A program made the translations under genes and the position numbers. A stretch of 60,039 bases of DNA, the filler included, from an uncultured virus (IMG/VR IMGVR_UViG_2502082094_000001) (Duplodnaviria; Heunggongvirae; Uroviricota; Caudoviricetes). It is 8 parts of one record of this genome, joined end to end, with 100 filler letters (N's around TTAATTAATTAA, not from the genome) between each part and the next. Parts side by side here need not be neighbours in the genome. Positions count along the whole stretch, not along the records: positions 54,133 to 60,039 come from IMGVR_UViG_2502082094_000001; 7 more parts are not named here. One strand, written 5' to 3'. Positions 1,160-58,426 of this stretch are shown here, piece by piece (the stretch's first letter is position 1; each line of letters opens with the position of its first letter). A model generated the notes under the pieces. That model saw only the letters and a list, made by a program, of their open reading frames with translations, searched no databases and had not been told where the DNA came from.

Positions 1160-2479
1160 ATTATTAACGTTAAGCTTTTGAGTTAATCTAAGCTGAAGGT
1201 TCTTAATACCACCTGCTCCATCAGATTCACCATATGCTTTAAATATGTCATTCTGATCTATTCCAATACTTATTGATTGTTCAGAGTTTTCAGCTGCTGC
1301 ATCAGCATTAATATTAGCCAGTCTTTGGGCACCTGCATCTGAAGTATATGTAACCGACTCGCCAGTGCGAAGGCCAAAGTTGTTAACTCTGTTATTATGT
1401 AAGTCAACAATTATAGGATCAGATGTAGCGTCAAAACCAATCTGTTCTACACCGTCTTGATCTACAATGCTTATATCGCCAGACACAATGTCGGCTAGGC
1501 CATCATTCCCGCCTCTAATGTCAAAGCTACCTTTTATCCTAGCTACTTTCTTCTGTATCCCACCTGCCCCATCAGCTTCAGCAGCTATTTCTAATATTGA
1601 CTCTCCACCTATATCAAATTTATACTCTTGTGCAGTACCAGCTGCTGGACTATCGGTAACAGGTATATTTACAATTGTTTGAGAGCCTGCATCTTCAGGG
1701 TATAAGAACGATCTACCAAGAGGTAAGTTTACATCTCTGTCACCAAAACTATACACGTTGTCTCTATTAGCTGTAGACCCAGTACCTATGGCTACAGAAT
1801 TTACACCGTTTGCTTCTGCACCATTACCTATAGCAGTTGAATCCTGAGCTGTAGCAATAGTGCCTCTACCAACTCCAGTTGCGCCATCTCCTGTTACATC
1901 AACACCAGTGCCAATAGATGTGGCATTGTCTGCTTCTACTGTTACACCTTGACCTACGACAGTAGTTGCAGCTCCATTTGCTTTAGTGCCCTGCCCAAAT
2001 GCAGATGCACTTTGTTTTAATGCTTCAGTCCCTCTACCAACTGCAGTTGACTGGTTTCCATTTGCTGTAGCATCTTCACCAATTGCTACTGTATCGTTAC
2101 CTCTTGCTTCTGATTTACGTCCAACTAGTACTACGTTTTCTCCATTAAAGCTGCTTCCAGCGTCATACCCTATTACGGTATTCCAATTAGACGGAGCTGT
2201 AGTCTCAGTGCCTATAGCGGTAGCGTCTTGACCTGTAGCCTCTGCTCCTTTACCATATGCGACAGTTCTACCATTGTTTGCTATTGCTCCTGTTCCAGTT
2301 GCTGTAGAGTCTGTCCCTGTAGCAACAACATTTCTACCAATACCTACAGTGTCTGGTAAAGTATCTGCATTGAGACCTATACTCACAGGGTCTTGAATTA
2401 GATCTCCAACTAGCTCTATGTCACCTCTAATTACTCTCCCACCGCCAAAGTAGGCAGTAGGTTGTTCCATTAGTCCCAT
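1160..2479 (-). CDS. YadA-head-repeat fibre/adhesin, variant allele, partial
   Basis: Repeated ATAIG/STAVG 14-aa units; probable true start MGLMEQP at 2479; N-terminal part near-identical to 16952-19063. Confidence 0.75.
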
Positions 2480-2745
2480 AACATTGTATACAAACGGGAG
2501 TGGCATAAATGGTTTGGTGCCTCGCGCGCGTGCGCGTAGCATGTAGCTACTGTAGAGAGTAACTACTGTAGAAAGTAGTAGCAAATTTTTAGAGCTCTAC
2601 TGCTATAGCTTAGCGACATGCTAAGATTAAAANNNNNNNNNNNNNNNNNNNNTTACAACTTGTACTATAGTCAGTAAGCTGTGTGAACTTTACGTGATAG
2701 ATCATCCATACTGTTGTAGTTGTATAGGTCCAATTTCTATCTCGA

Positions 2746-9688: not shown

Positions 9689-10645
9689 TTACGGTCTTAC
9701 GGTGTACTCTCCTAGAACTGCCTGAGTTCCATCTTCAGGCATAATCTCCGCAACTAGTGGGTTCAGCGTAGGCGCAAATGTTCTAAAGCTCAGGGTACTC
9801 TCTCCTTTGGGAATACTCTTGGTGAACGAGTTTAGAGTCACAGTGTAATCTTGGCTGCTACGGAGTTTGATGTTTAGATCTTGTGCTTTGTTAGACTGAA
9901 CCGTAGTAGTTACTCTTTGGATGAATGACGGTCTAGACGGAGTATGGCCCACAAATAGCGGCCCTGTATTATCACCTACAGTTGGGAAGCCTATAGGTTG
10001 TCCTGGATTGTTGGTCAGTTCTTCTACTGACATAAGTGATCCTACCCATTGTTCATTCTGTATGTTATTTGCTGCTGCCCAGCCTAGAAGGTTCTCACTA
10101 GCTATAACCCCATTACCTGGAGCATTAATTGAGAAGTTCTTGTCCCCTGCTATAATGTTGGCCTCCCCATTTTCTGAAACTGTTTGTCCTCTTTCAGACT
10201 TAAATGCCATCTGACCGTTCTTTACACCGGGAGTATATGGGTCTCCAGCGGCTACAGTTAACGCACTGCCTGCTCTAGCATACTCGTTAGCTCTAGCTTT
10301 TAGATTGGCTACGTATGCCTTTGCCGGAACCATCCAATCAGTAACGTCAGGCTCACTTTCTACTGGGGTAGTGTTTCTTGCCCAGTCCATCATTCTAGAC
10401 GAGCTTAGAGTCAAGGGCTCATCATATATCCCACTCCCCATGAGCCCTGACGGTTCAAACGAATCTGATTCGCTCGTGACTGTTACACCCCTTACTTTAG
10501 TCATGTCTGAAGCTATACCACCTGCCATGTCTAGTACCGTACCACTTGATGTAGGTAGTGCGCTTTTTGCTCTGTTAACCGCTGGGGGTATTTCCATTCT
10601 TGTACTGTCTATGCCGTTCTGCTTTCTTTGAATGTTGTATCTCAT
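9689..10645 (-). CDS. Putative structural protein, paralog of 10642-11636
   Basis: Shares DWM, AGDP/TGDP, GW and FR.P.DYT-like blocks and a similar C-terminus with its neighbour. Confidence 0.65.
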   Translation of the reverse strand: MRYNIQRKQNGIDSTRMEIPPAVNRAKSALPTSSGTVLDMAGGIASDMTKVRGVTVTSESDSFEPSGLMGSGIYDEPLTLSSSRMMDWARNTTPVESEPDVTDWMVPAKAYVANLKARANEYARAGSALTVAAGDPYTPGVKNGQMAFKSERGQTVSENGEANIIAGDKNFSINAPGNGVIASENLLGWAAANNIQNEQWVGSLMSVEELTNNPGQPIGFPTVGDNTGPLFVGHTPSRPSFIQRVTTTVQSNKAQDLNIKLRSSQDYTVTLNSFTKSIPKGESTLSFRTFAPTLNPLVAEIMPEDGTQAVLGEYTVRP

Positions 10646-28736: not shown

Positions 28737-31431
28737 TTAGTCTGATATCTCCATGTAATCGTCTAATCTCATAGGTCCATCGTCATCATCTGAAGCATCA
28801 ATTTCTACTGTTTCGTTAACCTCACCATCTGAGTCCCAGTTTCGTAACATGTTTTGTGCTTTGGACAGTTTCTTTCTAGCCTCGTGCTCTTCTCGCTCCC
28901 AAGTTTCGTCAAACTCTTGTTGTTCTTTCTTATCTGTACTCCCACCTCCGTCCGTGGGGTCTTCTGATTCATCTATTGCTGTTACAGTTTGAGAGTCTCC
29001 ACCATCATTCTTGAACGCATATTCTTCTAAGCGTGGCTGTCTATTTCCAGACTCGATTTCACTCCACGTCCAGTCTGTGCCTGCTAGTATGCGTTCAGTC
29101 GGTGACTTTATTTGAGTGTTAATGTATTTAGTCCAATCCCAGTCTATTACATCTGGTATGTCTTTCCAATTCATCCAGCAACACGGCTGAGTCTTAGACC
29201 TGTCTCGATCTGGCATGGGGTATTCTGCTGTACCGTCGTCTCCGGGGAGTATACGATTAACGTATGCCATTTTAGGCTTGTCTCCCGGTTGTATACCAGC
29301 ATCAAAGTGTTTGTTTGAATATCTGCTACCCTTAACTGCGGTAGTATCAGTTTCATACTGGTCGAAGTTTTTGGTTACGCTTGCGGGTATACCAAAGTCG
29401 TCAGGGTCAAACTCCAAGTTTTTAAGCTTCTCGATTGTATTACTAAGGTCTTCATGTACGTCTTGTAGATCTCCGTCACGCAGTATGTGATTAAACAACC
29501 GCTCCATAAATTCCTTCGCCACCTTTGAATAGTCTGAGCGTTTGTACTCAAAGCCTACAATATCCAGATCATCTTTTACTTTGCCCTCTTTCCACCCTAT
29601 CTGACCGGCGTACCGTTTCTTTTTGCCTGCTTGGAAGAAGCTTTCGTATAGCTTTTCAAACTCGATTTGGAAGAAATGCTCATCAGCATTTAGCTCTCGC
29701 AAGGCGAACTCATCATACCTGTTGTTTATTCTGCGCTCCATCTCGAAGCCAATGACTAGAACAGCAAACCATTTATTGAACTCCGAGTCTGACATTTCAC
29801 CTCGTTTGTCTTCTACTCTGGACCTAAACTCATGAACGCTGTCAACTCCATGCTCATCAAGCACATGGTTTACTTTCTGCTGATCTTGTATTATGCTTTG
29901 GTCTATCTCGTCTACCTGTATCATTACAGAGTCTGTATCGCCGTATACAGATTGATAGCCCATGTCTTCTACAACCTCTTCAGTAAATTTTATGACTTCA
30001 CGGCCTACAGCCGTTACAGCAGCTCCGACTTCTCGATCTTGCAGACGGAAGCGGTCCCAGCCCATTACTCCGTATAGAGTATTCATAACGACCTTCACCG
30101 CAGTTTGTTTGCGGTCGTAGATTGCGTATTGCTCTGAGTCAGGTGGGTATTGATCTCGTAGATCTTTGTACTGTTGCCGCTCCTCAAGCATTTCGTCAAT
30201 AATTTCTACGACTACTGCGTCCTCGTCGTTATTAAAGCTAATCCCGTTTGGAGCAACAAGTTCACCATCTGGGTCCTTTGTCTCAGGACCAGCATTGATG
30301 GTCTTCATTGACATGGGATATAGAGACTTAAGGTCCAGTACTACAACGTCGTCCTTTACGCCTGTGATTGGGTCAAATACTTTCGCGCCTTCAAACTCTT
30401 CAGTTTCTACGTTTCCAGCACTAGGTACTGCCCACGTACCATTGACTGCGCGGAGTACCTTAATATCAACGGCCTTGCTAGCGTCAACAACTTCTGCTAG
30501 TCTGCCACCGACATAGTTTGCTATCTCCTCATAAAACTTGATTATGTCTTGTTTTTCTTCGAGTTCTACAGTGAGTTTAACATCCTTGAAGTTGTAATCC
30601 ACAAGCTTTTGTGGGTCTTCTTTCCAAAGCACATGTAGATCTCGANNNNNNNNNNNNNNNNNNNNNNNNNNNNNNNNNNNNNNNNNNNNTTAATTAATTA
30701 ANNNNNNNNNNNNNNNNNNNNNNNNNNNNNNNNNNNNNNNNNNNNATTGCGTCAAAATCTCGTTTAATCACGTAATTCGCAAACGAACGAAGCATTCTGG
30801 CTTCGTCGGTGAACACCTTTACTTCTGCTGTCTCATGGTGTACATCTGGAAGCTCCGGGTGGTATAGCCAGACTATATAATCTTCTTTGTAGTTATCGTA
30901 TGCTGTTATAGCTGTTACTTCACGTTGTGCTTTCTCTTGGTCTGGGAAGCCTTCTGAGTCATCAACCTCAATGTCAGCGAAGCACACACGGCTACGCGCA
31001 CTGAAATCAGAGTGTTCTATATTGTCGAATTTAATTTCTGTAGGCTCAGGGGTAGCATGTTGCTCTGGTATTCTTATAGCCCCTTCTATTCCGTTATCTA
31101 TCATTACTCGGTTGGGCCAGAGTATGTCTGCTTCGTGGTGAGTGTACCCACTCCTAACCTTAGGCACATCGGCAGGTATTCTAGTAACCACTTTTACCAT
31201 GTGGTCGCCCTGTATATTTTCGTAACCCTTCTCACATCTAACCACTATGTCCTGGTTCTTTATATCAGAGTTAAACTCCTCAAACGGAACATAGAAGTAA
31301 GGCTGTTCTTCGGTGTTTGTGAGGTGTACTCTAGTACCTCCGGCTGTTCTGCCAAGCAAGTGTATTACTCCGTTTGGTCCATTCTCATACTCAACAGTGT
31401 AATCTCTCTTTTTAAGATCTACATCAATCAT
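28737..31431 (-). CDS. polB: Family B DNA polymerase (interrupted by assembly spacer 30646-30745)
   Basis: ExoI FADIEV; DLKSLYPMSM; KVVMNTLYG; YGDTDS; KKRYAG; PIP-like QPRLEEY and an acidic tail. Confidence 0.95.
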
Positions 31432-32366
31432 TCAGACTTACCCAACTTTCTACTTATTGAGCAACTAATTGAGTTTATGAACCTTTCACTGAATTCTTCT
31501 GAGAGTATTACTTGGTATTCTATATTAGATGTCTCTTCTCTGAAAAACTCATGTATTGAAAAGTTGTGATAGGATATAGATTTCCGTCTAACTTCACTAA
31601 CAGCGGTAAAATCTAGTAAGTGCTCAGTCAAACACCATACAAATAAGTTTTTAATTGATATAGAGGTACTGGTAAATGAACACTTACCAACACGTTCGTC
31701 GTAGTGACCTTCAGAGTCATATAGACCACTAATTAAGTATATAGCTTCTTCAGTTGTAAGCTCATCGACCCACTCAGTCCAGGTCCCAGACATGTATTTA
31801 TCCATTTCTAGTGTTAACTCTTTACTCACCTTTGTTGCGTAGTACATGTTATCTGTGGTTCCTTCTGTTATTGAACTTCTATCTAAATTAGTAAATTCAC
31901 ATAACCTGTTACAGTACATCTCTTTAAACGATTCATCTGCGGTACTTAATTGTATTTTGTGCTGGCCTTTCTCTGTAATTACAGATCCATCTCCAATTAA
32001 AACCCCTATGACATAAGCCTTGCTAGGACTCATTTCGTCTATACCATCAAAAGTTATTTTAGTACCTCTGCTGTTGTGTTCTATTCCAGCCTTTGTTAGC
32101 CACTCGTTCCACCCGCCATTTCTTTGAAACCAACTGCCTGATGGGCAGTCAAATTCTAAATTGCTTCTCCAGTTATTGTATTCATTTCTGCTAATTCTTT
32201 CGCCTGGAGTTTCAGAGTTACACTGCCTCATAACCTCCAGTACGTCTTCTTCGTCATATTTACCTCCTTTTGTGCTATGATTTTGTTCAGAAGCACCTAT
32301 GTTTAAATTACTTGGATTATATCTCCCGTTACCCTCTTTGTCGTTTCTGAATGAGTCTAGTCCCAT
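31428..32366 (-). CDS. Free-standing LAGLIDADG homing endonuclease with N-terminal endonuclease-associated repeat
   Basis: AYVIGVLIGDGS and LISGLYDSEG motifs; PS...F..NGGWNEWLTKAGI repeat; starts MGLDSF. Confidence 0.8.
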   Translation of the reverse strand: MGLDSFRNDKEGNGRYNPSNLNIGASEQNHSTKGGKYDEEDVLEVMRQCNSETPGERISRNEYNNWRSNLEFDCPSGSWFQRNGGWNEWLTKAGIEHNSRGTKITFDGIDEMSPSKAYVIGVLIGDGSVITEKGQHKIQLSTADESFKEMYCNRLCEFTNLDRSSITEGTTDNMYYATKVSKELTLEMDKYMSGTWTEWVDELTTEEAIYLISGLYDSEGHYDERVGKCSFTSTSISIKNLFVWCLTEHLLDFTAVSEVRRKSISYHNFSIHEFFREETSNIEYQVILSEEFSERFINSISCSISRKLGKSE

Positions 32367-37365: not shown

Positions 37366-37937
37366 TACTGAAACTCGTCCAATTCCTTGTTGTTACCAGA
37401 GTCTGACTCATCTAGTACATCTTCTGTCATAAAGTCTACCATGTACACATTTTCAACTCTGTACCCTCCTTTGGTTTTACTGCTTGATGGCTCTGTTTCA
37501 GAGTCTGTAATTACAAGAAACTTTATATCGTTCTTCTTTTCGTTGTACAGATTTAGTAGCCGCTCTGCCATGTCCGTGTTGCCTGTTATAAGGTTAACAG
37601 TTGGACCTGAGCGGAAGGTAGGGCCCTTCCGGGCTACTAAGCTGACTGCTTGTCCTACGTCTTCTCCGTTTAATGCTTGGTCCTTATCCTTTGGGTTAAT
37701 CCACTTAGAAACCCAGGACGCCTTAGCATTCTTCATAGTCATGCGGTGAACTATGAAACCGGAGTCAAATTCTAGTTTATCTTTTACATTCTTGAGTGAA
37801 TTTAACACACTCACCATTTCCTTCTTTTGTTCTTGCGTCGGCTGTCTATCCTCCCACTCTTCTTCCGTGAGAGGCATAATGTGCTTTGTATACACATCTA
37901 GATGTGGTTTTCTCACTTTTGAGGTTTCGTCTGTCAT
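37365..37937 (-). CDS. Hypothetical protein ending in KELDEFQ
   Basis: ORF within the recombination operon. Confidence 0.65.
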   Translation of the reverse strand: MTDETSKVRKPHLDVYTKHIMPLTEEEWEDRQPTQEQKKEMVSVLNSLKNVKDKLEFDSGFIVHRMTMKNAKASWVSKWINPKDKDQALNGEDVGQAVSLVARKGPTFRSGPTVNLITGNTDMAERLLNLYNEKKNDIKFLVITDSETEPSSSKTKGGYRVENVYMVDFMTEDVLDESDSGNNKELDEFQ

Positions 37938-38137
37938 CCTCAAAGCTCCAGCCAGCTATGACACTGGATACAAACTGGAGCTGAACTAGGACTTTATTCT
38001 TCTAAGTCCCAGTATTTATCCATTACTTCATCTGGAATTTCTTCTCCACAACCCATATCATGCGTTCCAGAGAAGAAGCCGTCACTGTGTATAGGAATAT
38101 CACAGTTAGGGCACTCTATGTCTGTTACTGGCATGTT

Positions 38138-39106
38138 TTAGAACCAGTCGCTAGGATCATCACCACCGTCAGACCCGCTATCATCATCAGCCGTTGCTTC
38201 TTCACTGTCACTCCCTGACCCGTCCGTGGTGGCTACTTCTTCATCGCCACTGTCTCCCATGTCTAGACCGCCAAGGTCTAGATCATCATCTTCTTCCCCA
38301 CGCCCGTCAATCTCCTCTACATTCTCCTCGAACGTGTCAAGGATGTGCTCGCGGCTTGTTTCACCATCCAGATTGTTATTGGTGATCCGAACTAGGGTAT
38401 CAAGCTGCTCGCCGCTACTCACCGAATGAAGCAAGTCGGCTTGCTGCTCTCCAATTGCGTTGAAGATCCGAAGTATGTCGCTATCCTCAACTTCAGGTTC
38501 GGAGCCACCGAGATCAAGGTCAGGGCTATCGTCAGTTGAGTTTGACGTTTCCGTGCTTGAGCCCTCGGTCTGTTGCTTTTGGGACTGTTCTTCAATGGAA
38601 GATCCTTGAAGTTGCTCCTCGAACTTGTCTGCGTACTTCTTCGCAACTTTCAGTGGGACTATGCCCTGTACTGGGTTGATGTTATAGTAAGTCTCCTCTT
38701 TGCCATCACTGTTCGATTGAGTGGTCTCCTCATATTGACCCACAACTAGGTAGTACTCATCAGTCTCGATTTTGTCGAGCAGGTCAAGGAGGTTCTGCTG
38801 GAACGCAAGCGAGAATAGCTCATCGCCGTGGAACATTCCTTGAGTCTTGGCAGAGTCACCAAGGGGCCAGCGGAAGGTTTGGAGGTCGGTATCAGGAGAG
38901 TGCATTAGAAGCACATCATAGGTATCCGAATCAGAATTGAACCTGAACCGTGGCTCTTCTCCCTTGAAGCCGTCGTTATTGACTGCTTCGTAAGCAATCT
39001 CCATCAACGTTTCCTTATCTACTTTTGAAGCGTTTTGACGGTTGTTGCGCTTTTTCTCATACTTTTCCTCGAACTCTGTACCTAGTATGTCACCAAGTTC
39101 TGACAT
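38138..39106 (-). CDS. Candidate single-stranded DNA-binding protein
   Basis: OB-like core (YYLVVGQY...YYNINPVQG), long acidic tail ending SDWF, high-expression codon bias, near RadA and Cas4-like genes. Confidence 0.45.
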   Translation of the reverse strand: MSELGDILGTEFEEKYEKKRNNRQNASKVDKETLMEIAYEAVNNDGFKGEEPRFRFNSDSDTYDVLLMHSPDTDLQTFRWPLGDSAKTQGMFHGDELFSLAFQQNLLDLLDKIETDEYYLVVGQYEETTQSNSDGKEETYYNINPVQGIVPLKVAKKYADKFEEQLQGSSIEEQSQKQQTEGSSTETSNSTDDSPDLDLGGSEPEVEDSDILRIFNAIGEQQADLLHSVSSGEQLDTLVRITNNNLDGETSREHILDTFEENVEEIDGRGEEDDDLDLGGLDMGDSGDEEVATTDGSGSDSEEATADDDSGSDGGDDPSDWF

Positions 39107-41376: not shown

Positions 41377-42006
41377 TTACCAATCATCAGCCCATCCATC
41401 ATCTTTTACTCCAAGATCTATATTGTCTGATCTTGACTTCACTTGCCGGTCTATGTGTGGGAGCCAGTCTGCATTCTCGTTGAACCACTCTCTGTATTCA
41501 TCTGGCATGGATGTATCGTCAATATCTTCTTCCCACTCGGGATCATCTATTTCTAAACCTTTCTCGTATCTTTTGAGTGCTTCAGCCGGATTATCGCCTC
41601 TAACAATCGCTTTCCACTGTACTACCTCTGGGACAAACTTCTGGACTACGTGGGTTCTGATCCCTTCGTAATCCTTATCCCAATCAGCTACTGGCAGATA
41701 CCATGCTGAAGCATCATTGAAGAATACTGCTACCACTTTATTGAGCCTGTCTCGCTCTTCAGGGAACCAGTATTCTACAACCTTGTTTGTCAACCTGTCG
41801 TTATCTATTATTTCTATGTCTGATGCTATCTTGAAGTCTACGTCGTACAATGGAGGCTCGTGAGGTGTATCATCACTTACAAACGGCTCCTTGTCATAAG
41901 ACGAGCACGCAGACTTGTTTATGTCATGCTCAGACAGCCAGCTAAACGAATCAGTAGATCTGGACTGTGAAGAGTCCGTTTGGTCGGCCTCCATTACTTT
42001 GCTCAT
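41377..42006 (-). CDS. Hypothetical protein
   Basis: Acidic ORF coupled to the 2H phosphoesterase gene. Confidence 0.7.
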   Translation of the reverse strand: MSKVMEADQTDSSQSRSTDSFSWLSEHDINKSACSSYDKEPFVSDDTPHEPPLYDVDFKIASDIEIIDNDRLTNKVVEYWFPEERDRLNKVVAVFFNDASAWYLPVADWDKDYEGIRTHVVQKFVPEVVQWKAIVRGDNPAEALKRYEKGLEIDDPEWEEDIDDTSMPDEYREWFNENADWLPHIDRQVKSRSDNIDLGVKDDGWADDW

Positions 42007-42503
42007 TCTATTGTTCTTATTTTTACTCTGCTTATTTGCGTATCTCTTATACCCACGCCCGACATTATTTCTTCTTGGAGTCGTTTCTTTCTGTCTCTGG
42101 GTATGGTGTCCCAGTAACCTTTAGTCTTGTATAAGGTTATATGCGGGCTATTTGGGTAGTTAATACTTGTTTTAGCATGTCTATCCAGTTGATCTATCAT
42201 GTGTTCTAACTCATCATGGAAGCCATGCTCTATGTCTAGCTGTACTACATACGGCTTATGTATATTCTCGTATACTGAAATTCTGTTTACTTGTATTTTT
42301 CTATTTCTGAATCTGTGGTTGTCTATTATATTCCTAACTCTGTCCATCCTGCCGTCCTTCACCGTGAAGCCCGGCACTAAAGTCATATGGGGTTTCTTTT
42401 TCTTGTAGAACTCTTCTGCTCCTGTAACCACCCAGAGGTAGTCTCTTAGTTGCTTGAGCTGTAGTTCGTTAGTTAATCTCCCCGAGACATATACTCGGTC
42501 CAT
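42003..42503 (-). CDS. 2H phosphoesterase (2'-5' RNA ligase / cyclic phosphodiesterase family)
   Basis: Two HxT motifs: PHMTL and PHITL. Confidence 0.8.
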   Translation of the reverse strand: MDRVYVSGRLTNELQLKQLRDYLWVVTGAEEFYKKKKPHMTLVPGFTVKDGRMDRVRNIIDNHRFRNRKIQVNRISVYENIHKPYVVQLDIEHGFHDELEHMIDQLDRHAKTSINYPNSPHITLYKTKGYWDTIPRDRKKRLQEEIMSGVGIRDTQISRVKIRTIE

Positions 42504-52694: not shown

Positions 52695-52726
52695 CACATG
52701 TGTAACTAAGCATTACACACGTAAGA

Positions 52727-52801
52727 CGGACGTAAAGGGATTTGAACCCTTGATCTAGTGGTTAGAAGCCACTCGCCTTATCCGGGCTAGGCTATACGTC
52801 C
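52727..52801 (-). tRNA. tRNA-Arg(TCT)
   Basis: Full cloverleaf; anticodon arm AGTGG-CTTCTAA-CCACT; no encoded CCA. Confidence 0.9.
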
Positions 52802-52804
52802 AGA

Positions 52805-52877
52805 TGGGTGAACGAGGATTTGAACCTCGGCTCTCCGCCTTGTAAGGGCGGCGTCTTAACCGCTAGACTACTCACCC
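52805..52877 (-). tRNA. tRNA-Val(TAC)
   Basis: Full cloverleaf; anticodon arm CCGCC-CTTACAA-GGCGG. Confidence 0.9.
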
Positions 52878-53023
52878 TAGGGGAGTGTGGATAGTGGGTA
52901 CACTCGGACCCAGACAATCGTGTGACACTCTGACTACCACTACCAACGGTAGTTCGTGACTAGCCTGACCCAACTTGCCACAGTTGGGTTCTCGATATTT
53001 GTAACGCTCCTCTTGGGGAGCAG

Positions 53024-53096
53024 TGGGCCTGCTCGGATTTGAACCGAGAGTCGACTCGTTATGAGCGAGTTGCCTTGACCGTTTGGCCACAGGCCC
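53024..53096 (-). tRNA. tRNA with CAT anticodon (probably Ile2, otherwise elongator Met)
   Basis: Cloverleaf; ACTCG-CTCATAA-CGAGT; GGGCC acceptor start typical of Ile tRNAs. Confidence 0.8.
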
Positions 53097-54027: not shown

Positions 54028-54132
54028 ATTGTNNNNNNNNNNNNNNNNNNNNNNNNNNNNNNNNNNNNNNNNNNNNTTAATTAATTAANNNNNNNNNNNN
54101 NNNNNNNNNNNNNNNNNNNNNNNNNNNNNNNN

Positions 54133-54305
54133 TCAGTGTCTGGTTGATCTGTACCTGGATCTGTGCTCACACGTTGAGCATCGCGGTCTACTTCAAACCC
54201 TACAGCTAGTGGCTCTTGCTCATTTGATTCATCATCATCGTCTGTGGATGAATCACTGCTTGAGCTTGATGAGCTACTATCTGTTTGGAAGTCATCTAAT
54301 CCCAT
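54133..54305 (-). CDS. Hypothetical protein starting MGLDDF, partial
   Basis: N-terminal tag followed by a poly-Ser/Asp linker. Confidence 0.7.
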
Positions 54306-54423: not shown

Positions 54424-55041
54424 TTACCAGTGTTCTATGTCTGTATGCCCCTTCAACTCAGTATCTACATCGTCACTTTTCCTGAAGCGTTGAGTGTATG
54501 ATTCTCCATGTATAGCTTTCATAGCATGTTCTGTGTCTTTGATAGACCAGTCATCTGTCATGCTATCAGCCATAGCCATCTTGACTACGTGTCTCACTTG
54601 GTGGAATGTGTTTACTACAACCTGAGTATCAGGTCCAACATCACTACCAAATCTGTTCTCTAACTCCGACATACACTCATCTTTCTCTACTTCTCCAGTG
54701 TCCAGCATAATGACTTCTCTTGGGACATTACCCAAAGTCATTTGCTGGGTAGACAAGCAAGATACAATACCTTCTGCGTCACCCAGCGTGTAGCGTGCTG
54801 CTGTATTGTACTCTGAGTCTTTAGTTATAATCGGGAATACAGGTAGTCTGTACTTGATTGAATCACTATTTACGCTTATGTGATCTTCTACAGTGTCTTC
54901 AAATTCACTATACGACTCGTACCCGTATGGGCCTGTGTTGTCTTCTGCTTGTTTTGGATCTTGAGACTCGTTTGAATCGTCTTCATTATTGTCTGACCCG
55001 CTACTACTCAAGTCTTCATCTATAAATTGCTCAAGCCCCAT
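54424..55041 (-). CDS. Hypothetical protein starting MGLEQF; paralog of 59628-60039
   Basis: Shared VSC...LG...E..M.D.G...K.E.M.E.E.R.G block. Confidence 0.7.
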   Translation of the reverse strand: MGLEQFIDEDLSSSGSDNNEDDSNESQDPKQAEDNTGPYGYESYSEFEDTVEDHISVNSDSIKYRLPVFPIITKDSEYNTAARYTLGDAEGIVSCLSTQQMTLGNVPREVIMLDTGEVEKDECMSELENRFGSDVGPDTQVVVNTFHQVRHVVKMAMADSMTDDWSIKDTEHAMKAIHGESYTQRFRKSDDVDTELKGHTDIEHW

Positions 55042-55051
55042 GAATTAACGA

Positions 55052-55351
55052 TTACTCTTCTAGGTAATCCTGGATGAACTCTTCGACGTTCTCACGTAGT
55101 CTTTTTTCCTCATCTGGGTCAAGATCTACGTTGTGCTCATCTGTGTCAAGGATCTCGTTTGCTCTTTGGATGATTGCTTTATCACCGTTCCCGTCAGCAC
55201 ATAGTGCTGCCTCCATAGCCCAGTCAGGGCTACGGGCAATCATTCCAGTCCAGAAAGCCTCGTCAACAGTAACGTTCCCTAGTTGCTTTCGGGTTTTGAT
55301 GGTCGTTTCCTCTTCTTCTTGCTCAGATTGTTGAAATTCTTCTAGTCCCAT
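55052..55351 (-). CDS. Hypothetical protein starting MGLEEF
   Basis: Acidic ORF within the operon. Confidence 0.7.
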   Translation of the reverse strand: MGLEEFQQSEQEEEETTIKTRKQLGNVTVDEAFWTGMIARSPDWAMEAALCADGNGDKAIIQRANEILDTDEHNVDLDPDEEKRLRENVEEFIQDYLEE

Positions 55352-55647
55352 TAGCTTTCAACCTCAAAGTATCCGCTGACTGAACCGCTTCCTTCTACCT
55401 CTTGTTTTACGCGCTTTGCGGCCTCTATTGCTGATGATTTATTGAGACGCTGACTTTCCTTACCGTTATACGTAGCTAGTCTGGAGTCCCAACTGTCTAC
55501 AACATCACCATTATCGAGAAGTCTTACTTTGTACTCCCACCAATTCTTATCATTTACTGTCTCGATTCTGTCACAGACACGGTATACATCAAAGTCTACC
55601 GTGTAGCTATGTTCTGGACTGTCTTTGCTAGTTTGTGTGTTGGGCAT
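55351..55647 (-). CDS. Hypothetical protein
   Basis: Coupled ORF downstream of the hammerhead. Confidence 0.65.
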   Translation of the reverse strand: MPNTQTSKDSPEHSYTVDFDVYRVCDRIETVNDKNWWEYKVRLLDNGDVVDSWDSRLATYNGKESQRLNKSSAIEAAKRVKQEVEGSGSVSGYFEVES

Positions 55648-55655
55648 ATTTTCTT

Positions 55656-55730
55656 CTAACTTTGTTGTTTCGCTTGGACCAGACCCAAGCTCATCAGGTG
55701 GCTAATGTATGCCACGACGTAAATAGTTAG
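55656..55730 (-). ncRNA. Type III hammerhead ribozyme
   Basis: GUC^-GUGGC-AUACAUUA-GCCAC-CUGAUGA-GCUUGG-GUCUGGU-CCAAGC-GAAAC; distal stem III CUAACU/AGUUAG. Confidence 0.8.
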
Positions 55731-55746
55731 GGGTATTGCTACATGG

Positions 55747-56124
55747 TTAGCGGTTTAGCTCAGTCCATGCCTCCACTAAGATCTTTAGTAAATCTTCACT
55801 TAGTACACACGTATTAAGCCAATGTTCATCTTCCTGTGGGAACTCAAACGGTGTACTTACCGTGTACTGATTTTCCTCTTCAATCCACGCATGTATTTGC
55901 TCTATTGAGTCAATGTCACGAGCAACTATTAAACTATACCATACCTCCGCTCCTCCTACGATGCCGCTTGTTACTTCTCTCATACTACCTGCATTTTCTC
56001 CATAGGCAAAGTAGCAGCTAGGGCAAGCGATGAACGTATACCACGTACCGCTACCTTTCTTAATGAAGCAGTTCATCTCACCGCACCGTGGGCAAGGCCC
56101 TCCAAGCCCTTCTGTTCTTGACAT
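55747..56124 (-). CDS. Zn-finger protein
   Basis: CPRCG...CPSC. Confidence 0.7.
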   Translation of the reverse strand: MSRTEGLGGPCPRCGEMNCFIKKGSGTWYTFIACPSCYFAYGENAGSMREVTSGIVGGAEVWYSLIVARDIDSIEQIHAWIEEENQYTVSTPFEFPQEDEHWLNTCVLSEDLLKILVEAWTELNR

Positions 56125-56664: not shown

Positions 56665-56946
56665 TCATTCTATATCGTCTTCCATATTACGTATTGTGTC
56701 AACTAATAACTCATATTCTTGACTATATGTATGCTGGCTATCAATGTTCCGTGTTCCAGTACCGTAATCAATACATACAATATCTCCATCAAGCTTGGCA
56801 AAATTTCCTCTGTTAAAGTCAACTAGATCTATTTTTGCATCCATTATTATGGACGTTACACATATTACCCACTCAGCGTTTGTGATATTTGTATCTGCTT
56901 TTGGCATGGTAAGCCACATATTTTCATCTCCATGATGCTTGACTGG
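56665..56946 (-). CDS. Protein-kinase-like fragment, 5' partial
   Basis: WLTMP hinge, DFNRGNF catalytic loop, CIDYG (DFG-like). Confidence 0.55.
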   Translation of the reverse strand, partial: PVKHHGDENMWLTMPKADTNITNAEWVICVTSIIMDAKIDLVDFNRGNFAKLDGDIVCIDYGTGTRNIDSQHTYSQEYELLVDTIRNMEDDIE

Positions 56947-57252
56947 NNNNNNNNNNNNNNNNNNNNGCTGTTGCTTTATTGTTATTGTTACTGCCCACGG
57001 CGGGGTCTGTGCGCCTTCCGTTGCTGCGAACATTAATCTCTACCTTTAACTCTACCTTATCTAGTCTCTTACAGCAGTCCCGTGGAGATACCTCTTTACT
57101 CTAGAGTGTAGTAGAGTATAAGTAGTACCTTTATAACCCTCTATATTAATACGCGCACGCGACACGCGCCCGCACGCACGTAGTAGGGTTTTGCTCGTAT
57201 TCTAAGCAATAGTACTGACATTAATTGTTCGCAGAACTTCACTTTTTGATGC

Positions 57253-57456
57253 TTATTTATGATCTGCTCTGCTCCTTGCCTGCTTAGCCATTTCTATGTA
57301 TACGTTTGCTGATGACTTTTCAATGAACTCTGCTAGCTCGTCATAGCCCATATCTTCAGCTATTTGCTTGACACCTCGCATGTCAAACATATTTATCATG
57401 CCGCTTCTTCTTATGGCTTCTTGCTGATGAAGCACTTCTTCTGGATATTCACTCAT
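57253..57456 (-). CDS. DUF5049-like small protein
   Basis: EAIRRSGMINMFD. Confidence 0.6.
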   Translation of the reverse strand: MSEYPEEVLHQQEAIRRSGMINMFDMRGVKQIAEDMGYDELAEFIEKSSANVYIEMAKQARSRADHK

Positions 57457-57465
57457 TGCTTACAA

Positions 57466-58426
57466 TGATTCTGTGTACTTAGCGCACGTTGCTCAGACCT
57501 TTCCGATGACATCTGTTGAGTCTTTATCAAGTGCTGTTCTGAGTATGGTTTTGAACTCTACTCTGCTAAGCACTTTCTGGAACTGTTCACTGGATAATTC
57601 GTACTTGTATAGTGGACGTATGCTGTCTAGCTCGATGTTGAACTCCGCATTATTACTTATTATGTCTGATTCCTCGATTCCATTTTTTTGCCTATCAAGT
57701 GTTTCTACACCCTGAAAGCACCCCTTTTTTATCGAGTGCTCATACACTCTTGATGTTAAGCTTGAACCTTCCTCTACTTGCCCTACGTACCAGAACACTC
57801 TTCCGTCCGATGATCTAGTACATTTTAGGACATATACGAAGGCATCAGCGTTTTTATCGTAATCTGGATGTGTCTTTACCAGATTTGACCAGTACTTGTA
57901 GCTTTTACCGCTGTTATTGTTTCTTCTTTCGTTTGCGTTTCTGTACGCTATTTGCTTGTCTGTTACTTCTATTCCTAGACTTATGAGCCCGTTTACAAAT
58001 GAGCCATCTCCATACTTCTTTGAGACTGTACCAGCGGAAAAGGTACAGTGCTCATCTACTTTTGACTTTGTCACTGGCTTATCCAGTTTTGCTAGCTCAT
58101 TTGAGGCTTCGTTTTTACTAGGAGCACTTCTCATGTTTTGCTTTAGTGAGAGATGCTCCTTTACGCCATTAAATGTCTTGTCCGTGTACTCCTTTATGGT
58201 TGTATGGTGTATACCGTTGTTTTCTCTTCTTAGATCTGCTAATGTGAAGCTTTCACCGCACTTTTCTGCTGTTTCAAGAAACATTCTGTATATTTCTGCT
58301 TCAGTTAATTTGTTATCCTCGGCTTCTCTACTTTGATCTCCTGATGAGAATTGTTCTAATCCCATGCGTCAATATACCAAACCTATATAAATAAACTTTT
58401 TGTTTTCACTAGTTTATTGATTCTGT
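57466..58426 (-). mobile_element. Homing endonuclease cassette flanked by TGATTCTGT direct repeats
   Basis: Absent from the allele at ~3460; 9-bp repeat at 57466-57474 and 58418-58426. Confidence 0.8.
57493..58365 (-). CDS. GIY-YIG endonuclease with N-terminal endonuclease-associated repeats
   Basis: FVYVL...WYVGQ...SRVYEH; starts MGLEQF. Confidence 0.75.
   Translation of the reverse strand: MGLEQFSSGDQSREAEDNKLTEAEIYRMFLETAEKCGESFTLADLRRENNGIHHTTIKEYTDKTFNGVKEHLSLKQNMRSAPSKNEASNELAKLDKPVTKSKVDEHCTFSAGTVSKKYGDGSFVNGLISLGIEVTDKQIAYRNANERRNNNSGKSYKYWSNLVKTHPDYDKNADAFVYVLKCTRSSDGRVFWYVGQVEEGSSLTSRVYEHSIKKGCFQGVETLDRQKNGIEESDIISNNAEFNIELDSIRPLYKYELSSEQFQKVLSRVEFKTILRTALDKDSTDVIGKV

Follow-up and report, generated by a model that had tools for sequence, protein, structure and literature searches.

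Hammerhead ribozymes have been described from the haloviruses HF1 and HF2 and from saltern viral metagenomes (Perreault et al., 2011; PMC3088659). According to that paper, the HF1/HF2 hammerhead, HHphage, precedes a helicase start codon by 13 nt, and the 5' end of a transcript was mapped to within 3 nt of the cleavage site; prophage hammerheads flank genes, and native polycistronic constructs of about 2 kb were cleaved in vitro. The same authors state that some saltern hammerheads require high Mg2+ and, in the methods, that candidates with multiple mispairs in short stems were disqualified unless they were active (PMC3088659). Dyall-Smith and colleagues (PMC7230728) also name a hammerhead when they list non-coding features conserved in HF1-group viruses. 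In the GenBank record of HF2 (AF222060), the ribozyme is annotated at 10292-10359, 11 nt before the Rad3-like helicase gene. A search of the literature on hammerheads in archaeal viruses or halophiles yielded no further primary report.

The locus analysed here belongs with these examples. A first-pass annotation of the DNA had remarked that hammerheads are rarely reported from archaeal viruses, a statement that overstates the novelty of the find, given the HF1/HF2 and saltern sequences in print and the annotated HF2 copy. The kind of ribozyme, its habitat and its position at an operon junction were all published in 2011.

The host element and the gene junction

The motif lies in the window, by which we mean the whole stretch of DNA analysed, 60,039 nt in length, of which 736 bases are masked (N), for example within 54081-54305 and 56665-57033, with runs of X in the ORF translations. 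The window derives from a virus-like mobile element of about 112 kb and low G+C that is binned with a small-genome archaeon of a hypersaline lake. The nearest genome used, G001 (1.2 Mb), is 100% identical to the window over the 901 bases compared, and the contig that matches there, G001:C2, spans 111.8 kb, with an integrase near one end. G001 is archaeal, as judged from ribosomal protein S28e on another contig, for which the control search matches archaea only.

The window encodes a family B DNA polymerase, a Cas4-like exonuclease, a RecA-like ATPase, a DUF3987/helicase-like protein and a ParA-like ATPase, and further a subtilase, YadA-repeat proteins, three tRNA genes and a LigT-like 2H phosphoesterase. 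The last two entries are placed as follows:

52725-53096, minus strand: tRNA genes Arg-TCT, Val-TAC and Met-CAT, about 70 bits each, on the same strand as the surrounding genes
42003-42503, minus strand: LigT-like 2H phosphoesterase, Pfam PF02834 at 29.1 bits, with two H-x-T motifs (HMT and HIT)

Because no capsid or terminase family was matched among the element ORFs scanned, we prefer the safe term 'mobile element' to 'virus', which the element likely is. The family B polymerase ORF (28737-30632, minus strand) covers only positions 302-846 of the PHROG polymerase profile, and a LAGLIDADG endonuclease ORF (31428-32366, minus strand) lies just upstream of it; judging from these ORFs, the polymerase gene in 28737-32366 may be split or interrupted.

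The hammerhead occupies most of the spacer between two genes transcribed in the same direction. In the order of transcription, the junction comprises the following features:

55747..56124, minus strand: upstream gene from the ORF list, a 125-aa zinc-ribbon-like protein (CxxC...CxxC), with its stop codon TAA at 55749-55747
55656..55730, minus strand: whole hammerhead motif including distal stem III, 75 of the 99 nt of the intergenic spacer
55725..55730, minus strand: 5' strand of the distal helix of stem III, CUAACU, pairing with 55661-55656
55716..55718, minus strand: cleavage triplet GUC (G16.2, U16.1, C17), read from the sequence and aligned with the GUC of the RF00008 consensus
55698..55715, minus strand: stem I hairpin, GUGGC (55715-55711) with GCCAC (55702-55698), 5 bp
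55691..55697, minus strand: core strand C3 to A9, CUGAUGA, from the sequence and the RF00008 alignment
55672..55690, minus strand: stem II hairpin, GCUUGG (55690-55685) with CCAAGC (55677-55672), six Watson-Crick pairs
55667..55671, minus strand: core strand G12 A13 A14 followed by A15.1 and C15.2, GAAAC, with GAAA itself at 55671-55668
55656..55661, minus strand: 3' strand of the distal helix of stem III, AGUUAG, pairing with 55730-55725
55351..55647, minus strand: downstream gene from the ORF list, a 98-aa protein, with its ATG at 55647-55645

Read on the minus strand, the type III core (GUC, CUGAUGA, GAAA) is complete at 55718-55667, and the distal 6-bp helix of stem III stretches the motif to 55730-55656, giving a size of 52 to 75 bases depending on how much of distal stem III is included. 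The core nucleotides are canonical throughout (C3 U4 G5 A6 N7 G8 A9, G12 A13 A14, the A15.1-U16.1 pair, and C55716 as H17), as are the pairs at all three helix ends that face the core (G55715-C55698, G55690-C55672 and A55668-U55717). The topology is likewise that of type III, in which loops close stems I and II and stem III is open, and RF00008 model positions 1-54 are aligned. Loop 1 is the 8-nt AUACAUUA (55710-55703); stem II is additionally closed by a G55684.U55678 wobble pair around the loop UCUGG, and no clear Watson-Crick pseudoknot between the two loops of the window motif is visible by eye. The hammerhead has a G+C content of 48%.

Stem III is the weak element. Next to the core it consists of two pairs, A15.1-U16.1 and C15.2-G16.2, after which come three mismatches, within a 6x5 internal loop that separates these pairs from the distal helix. 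The predicted cut falls 3' of C55716, between 55716 and 55715, which is 31 nt past the upstream stop codon and 68 nt before the downstream ATG in a spacer of 99 nt between ORFs 55747-56124 and 55351-55647. The first-pass annotation had described a complete core with stems I and II of 5 and 6 bp, a sense orientation at the junction, this cut and its distance from the ATG, and a stem III of two core-proximal pairs, mismatches and a 6-bp distal helix; all of this was confirmed, with ribozyme and both flanking ORFs on the minus strand.

Neither the 125-aa nor the 98-aa flanking protein has a Pfam or PHROG match. The upstream zinc-ribbon-like protein has 15 metagenomic relatives at 42-71% identity, and among 70 genomes of the phylum of G001 (0.5-1.7 Mb) the flanking proteins were found only in G001 itself. 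Four other minus-strand ORFs of the window (54081-54305, 54424-55041, 55052-55351 and 57493-58365) share a near-identical N-terminus, MGL[ED][EQD]F, which leads into a serine-rich, acidic stretch, and otherwise look unrelated to one another; the shared start may be a tag or signal at the N-terminus, or else reflect gene starts that are prone to recombination.

Chance expectation and conservation of the motif

The Rfam Hammerhead_3 model was run, a check proposed in the first-pass annotation. In a permissive scan of 401 bases, the motif scores 27.4 bits against RF00008 (E = 7.9e-4) in a type III alignment whose non-canonical pairs are confined to stem III; this lies under the gathering score of 48.5, as does the 32.2 bits of the motif at L005, a related locus described below. 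At gathering thresholds, the default Rfam scan of the whole window reports only the three tRNAs at 52725-53096, which are also its only tRNA-type matches, and leaves the hammerhead below threshold; a permissive scan of the entire window also drops it at the filtering stage. Within G001, the window motif is the top RF00008 match, 10 bits above a runner-up of 17.1 bits, and Rfam hammerhead types I and II have no match at E <= 1. RF00008 applied with strict filters to the 70 genomes of the phylum of G001 recovered no copy, the known one in G001 included.

How readily such a motif arises by chance was estimated with a structural descriptor. The loose type III form demands a UH site, CUGANGA and GAAA, with at least 4 bp in each of stems I and II and the 15.2-16.2 pair; the strict form demands CUGAUGA, a stem I of at least 5 bp and a stem II of at least 6 bp. 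The descriptor matches the window once; among 300 dinucleotide-preserving shuffles, the loose form occurs in two and the strict form in none. Searched with the type III descriptor and with Rfam types I, II and III, the contig of about 112 kb contains a single hammerhead. A further match at 57392-57290 (minus strand) to a relaxed descriptor, in which U3/A8, an extra base after A9 and 0-2 bases inserted before C3 were permitted, was rejected: it lies inside the coding ORF 57253-57456, and the chance rate is 0.295 per shuffled window. Because very many windows had been scanned, a chance match somewhere among them is possible, and we therefore took conservation as the deciding test.

The minimum free energy (MFE) fold of the motif region includes stem I, stem II and the distal helix. 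Nearest-neighbour models, which leave out the tertiary energy of the three-way junction, favour a competing fold that engages the core GAUG in pairing with CGUC (-19.6 kcal/mol in the window, -19.0 in L005) over the hammerhead (-14.5 and -16.7 kcal/mol, respectively). The hammerhead is thus at a disadvantage of 5.1 kcal/mol in the window and 2.3 kcal/mol in L005.

Metagenome contigs that match the upstream protein represent nine loci. L004 does not differ from the window. At L005 and L006, whose flanking proteins are 70% and 60% identical to that of the window and which equal each other in the motif region, the hammerhead stands at the same gene junction, ahead of a 98-aa gene homologue. Between the window and L005, the block from GUC to GAAAC is identical at 50 of 52 bases (96%), compared with 128 of 211 (61%) in the aligned flanks, coding sequence included (binomial P = 3e-9 for the block against the flanks); of the 28 nt that separate the stop codon from GUC, 14 agree. 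Both differences in the block fall in one stem II pair, U55687-A55675 in the window and A-U in L005/L006, and are compensatory. When the 3' partners are shifted as a control, the proportion of paired cells drops from 85.7% to 29-45%. A covariation shuffle control has no power with only two distinct full sequences aligned: 253 of 500 shuffles reach the observed score.

CUGAUGA, stem I, loop 1 and loop 2 are invariant between the window and L005/L006, and the unpaired core is as invariant as the stems. Loss of the core in relatives, which the first-pass annotation had named as evidence against its call, is not seen in L005/L006. The invariant loops, set against flanks of 61% identity, would fit a constrained tertiary contact between loop 1 and loop 2, the kind of contact that permits fast cleavage at physiological Mg2+. 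Stem III varies: the distal 6-bp helix of the window is not kept in L005, which has instead an in-register stem III of four contiguous pairs (ACAA with UUGU), two mismatches and three more pairs.

At L007, L008, L009 and L010, the last three of which are contigs with the same sequence at that site, another gene directly follows the zinc-ribbon gene, and no ribozyme is found there. L011 ends at the zinc-ribbon gene and L012 about 100 nt past it, and both are uninformative on the ribozyme. L009 contains, at 2431-2483 (plus strand), a second hammerhead-like motif with a GUU site, GAAAC, and stems I and II of 5 bp and 5-6 bp; an extra U comes after its CUGAUGA, and the motif stands in sense orientation in the gap between ORFs 1671-2411 and 2573-2836. 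This motif is absent from the otherwise similar L008 and has no Rfam match.

In a phage collection, neither 2 kb of window DNA nor the upstream protein found a match, and an 81-nt motif query returned chance-level matches only (E >= 0.7). Searches of IMG/VR viral contigs with either flanking protein, the protein alignment and three ribozyme patterns found nothing. One genome-contig match extended over 12 residues only and was dismissed as spurious.

Of the sequencing runs that contain parts of the region, none is an RNA run and seven are DNA runs from hypersaline or aquatic metagenomes; contigs from four of the seven were compared with the window at 80% likeness. In three further hypersaline-lake runs (X3, X6 and X7), contigs match the ribozyme block and have flanks unlike those of the window. 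The match of the X3 contig (326 nt) is limited to the block, 55666-55718, with five differences at unlisted positions, and its flanks are dissimilar to the window on both sides. The X6 and X7 contigs match 55665-55758 and then depart downstream; their sole listed difference in or beside the block is at 55719, where C16.3 becomes U and adds a third stem III pair. The two changes between the X6 and X7 downstream flanks are both synonymous when read from the ATG found there. In X3, X6 and X7 an ATG follows within about 5-10 nt of the ribozyme, and in all four contexts within about 5-30 nt.

In X3, the letters beyond the ends of the match carry stem III on to seven contiguous pairs (A-U, C-G, A-U, G.U, A-U, U-A, A-U). 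Across the four contexts, stem III therefore ranges from 2 bp (plus the distal 6 bp) in the window, the weakest version, through 3 bp in X6 and X7 and 4 bp + 3 bp in L005 to 7 bp in X3, and its complementarity is retained via different letters in each. One ribozyme block, loops included, thus precedes at least three different downstream sequences. The type III identity proposed in the first-pass annotation is backed by this conservation in L005/L006, X3, X6 and X7 and by the one compensatory change.

A probable self-cleaving leader and its rivals

Direct observation extends to the motif itself, to how seldom it arises by chance, to its conservation, to one compensatory pair and to its recurrent place just before an ATG. 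These observations are best explained, with a probability that we put at about 0.72, by a genuine type III hammerhead in the 99-nt spacer, likely serving as a self-cleaving leader at an operon junction. A multi-gene transcript would be made across both cistrons; the motif would fold into its three-way junction and self-cleave after C55716. A 2',3'-cyclic phosphate, 31 nt past the stop codon, would terminate the upstream message, and the downstream message would begin with a 5'-OH and a compact ribozyme fold, its start codon 68 nt on. In this way, the fate of the downstream cistron would likely be uncoupled from the upstream RNA, and the cistron would gain a defined, structured 5' end. An effect of this kind has been proposed for the prophage and HF1/HF2 hammerheads.

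The first-pass annotation had added that the encoded 2H phosphoesterase might process the resulting 2',3'-cyclic phosphate. The domain itself is confirmed (PF02834, with H-x-T twice), and the connection to the ribozyme is unsupported: the ORF is 13 kb distant, and no evidence joins it to the cyclic phosphate end. Repair of tRNA or breakdown of a cyclic-nucleotide signal is an equally possible role for such an enzyme. The likening of the ribozyme, in the same annotation, to a self-cleaving counterpart of tRNA-like punctuation marks is also unsupported; tRNA-type matches of the window at the Rfam gathering score are confined to the three tRNA genes at 52725-53096.

One difficulty for a self-cleaving leader is stem III with its mismatches; Perreault et al. 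disqualified candidates with multiple mispairs in short stems unless activity had been demonstrated (PMC3088659). One might suppose that the window copy descends from a true hammerhead and has been crippled, its stem III too weak for any but very slow cleavage, if it cleaves at all, so that it persists as a structured leader. Such a supposition would account for the C at 16.3 in the window, which leaves an A.C mismatch at 15.3-16.3 where L005/L006, X6 and X7 have a U paired with A15.3, and for a hammerhead fold that trails the competing fold by 5.1 kcal/mol as against 2.3 in L005. All other positions, both loops included, are nevertheless unchanged relative to the relatives, which argues against decay, and the window has a 6-bp distal helix of its own to close stem III. 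The very high intracellular salt to be expected in a halophilic archaeon stabilises short helices, and we also count it against a crippled copy. On balance we regard this explanation as unlikely. The suggestion of the first-pass annotation that a weak stem III could render cleavage slow or ion-dependent is a reasonable one, with a parallel in the saltern hammerheads that require high Mg2+ (PMC3088659).

Two other rivals dispense with the ribozyme. The conserved 52-nt block could serve otherwise, as a promoter with 5'-UTR hairpins, a protein-binding site or a terminator, to which the hammerhead fit would be coincidental: the AT-rich box directly 5' of GUC (UAUUUA in the window, UUUAUUU in L005) can be read as TATA-like, and two strong hairpins could by themselves account for part of the conservation. 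A TATA box at that place, however, would start transcription inside the motif, and it leaves unexplained both the conservation of GUC and the stem III complementarity in the unrelated flanks of X3. Unpaired core nucleotides are, moreover, as invariant as the stems, and a chance fit to the whole core and helix placement, seen in 0-2 of 300 shuffled windows, is very unlikely; we consider another function for the block highly improbable. A functionless look-alike produced by chance alone would agree with a score under the Rfam gathering threshold and with the rare chance matches to be expected when very many windows are scanned. It is hardly credible in view of a block that is 96% identical between flanks that are 61% identical, contains a compensatory change, and turns up again, differently flanked, in contigs from three other runs.

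With a genuine hammerhead preferred on these grounds, a broader and decidedly tentative proposal, rather doubtful on present sequences, is that hypersaline archaeal viruses use the block as a portable leader cassette that cleaves itself, in which only the outer strands of stem III would be re-fitted to each context and the strength of stem III would set the need for salt or Mg2+. If this were true, a virus could tune individual cistrons to the ionic state of its host. Copies of an otherwise identical ribozyme with stem III of 2 to 7 bp form a small natural series, well suited to asking whether viruses of salt lakes control genes through ion-dependent self-cleavage. The reuse of the same ribozyme block before different genes is to us the most interesting residue of the analysis, and the notion of an ion-dependent cleavage dial is speculative.

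Comparison with known hammerheads

The closest parallel is the hammerhead of HF2, which also belongs to a virus of halophilic archaea and also stands in sense orientation in a short spacer between co-oriented genes, directly before a start codon. The role proposed for HHphage, the generation or trimming of the 5' end of a polycistronic early transcript, resembles the one proposed here. The two ribozymes differ in class and composition, the HF2 copy being type II (RF02276, 41.1 bits against a gathering score of 37) with 69% G+C and the window copy type III with 48% G+C, and their primary sequences are unalike beyond the core. The HF2 copy carries a two-base insertion near C3, whereas the window core is fully canonical. 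HF2 further encodes an RtcB RNA ligase (37516-38880), whereas a general family scan of the 62 longer ORFs in the window and the remaining contig found no RtcB-family match. Enzymes of the RtcB class join 2',3'-cyclic phosphate and 5'-OH ends. The string spanning stem I and the core was not matched in the portion of the supplementary text of PMC3088659 used for the comparison, in which gapped alignments would escape such a match.

With the hammerheads of phages and prophages presented by Perreault et al. (2011), the window copy shares an intergenic position in a mobile element and a proposed processing of long transcripts to gene-length mRNAs. Those examples are bacterial and often consist of two or three ribozymes flanking a gene, whereas the contig of about 112 kb shows one. 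The hammerheads of viroids, satellite RNAs and eukaryotic repeats in RF00008 have the same topology, core and GUC site; relative to them, the window motif has a sub-threshold score, a longer loop 1 and an interrupted stem III, and it is encoded in the DNA of an archaeal mobile element and not in a circular RNA replicon.

A putative functional analogue exists in synthetic biology. In RiboJ-type insulators, a hammerhead placed just upstream of a coding sequence strips the upstream RNA and leaves a 5'-OH leader that bears a hairpin. These insulators are engineered and used in bacteria, whereas the element described here is natural and would, by analogy, work alike. The window copy leaves the general understanding of hammerheads unaltered, and it extends the short list of ribozymes from mobile elements of halophilic archaea by a type III hammerhead with a canonical core.
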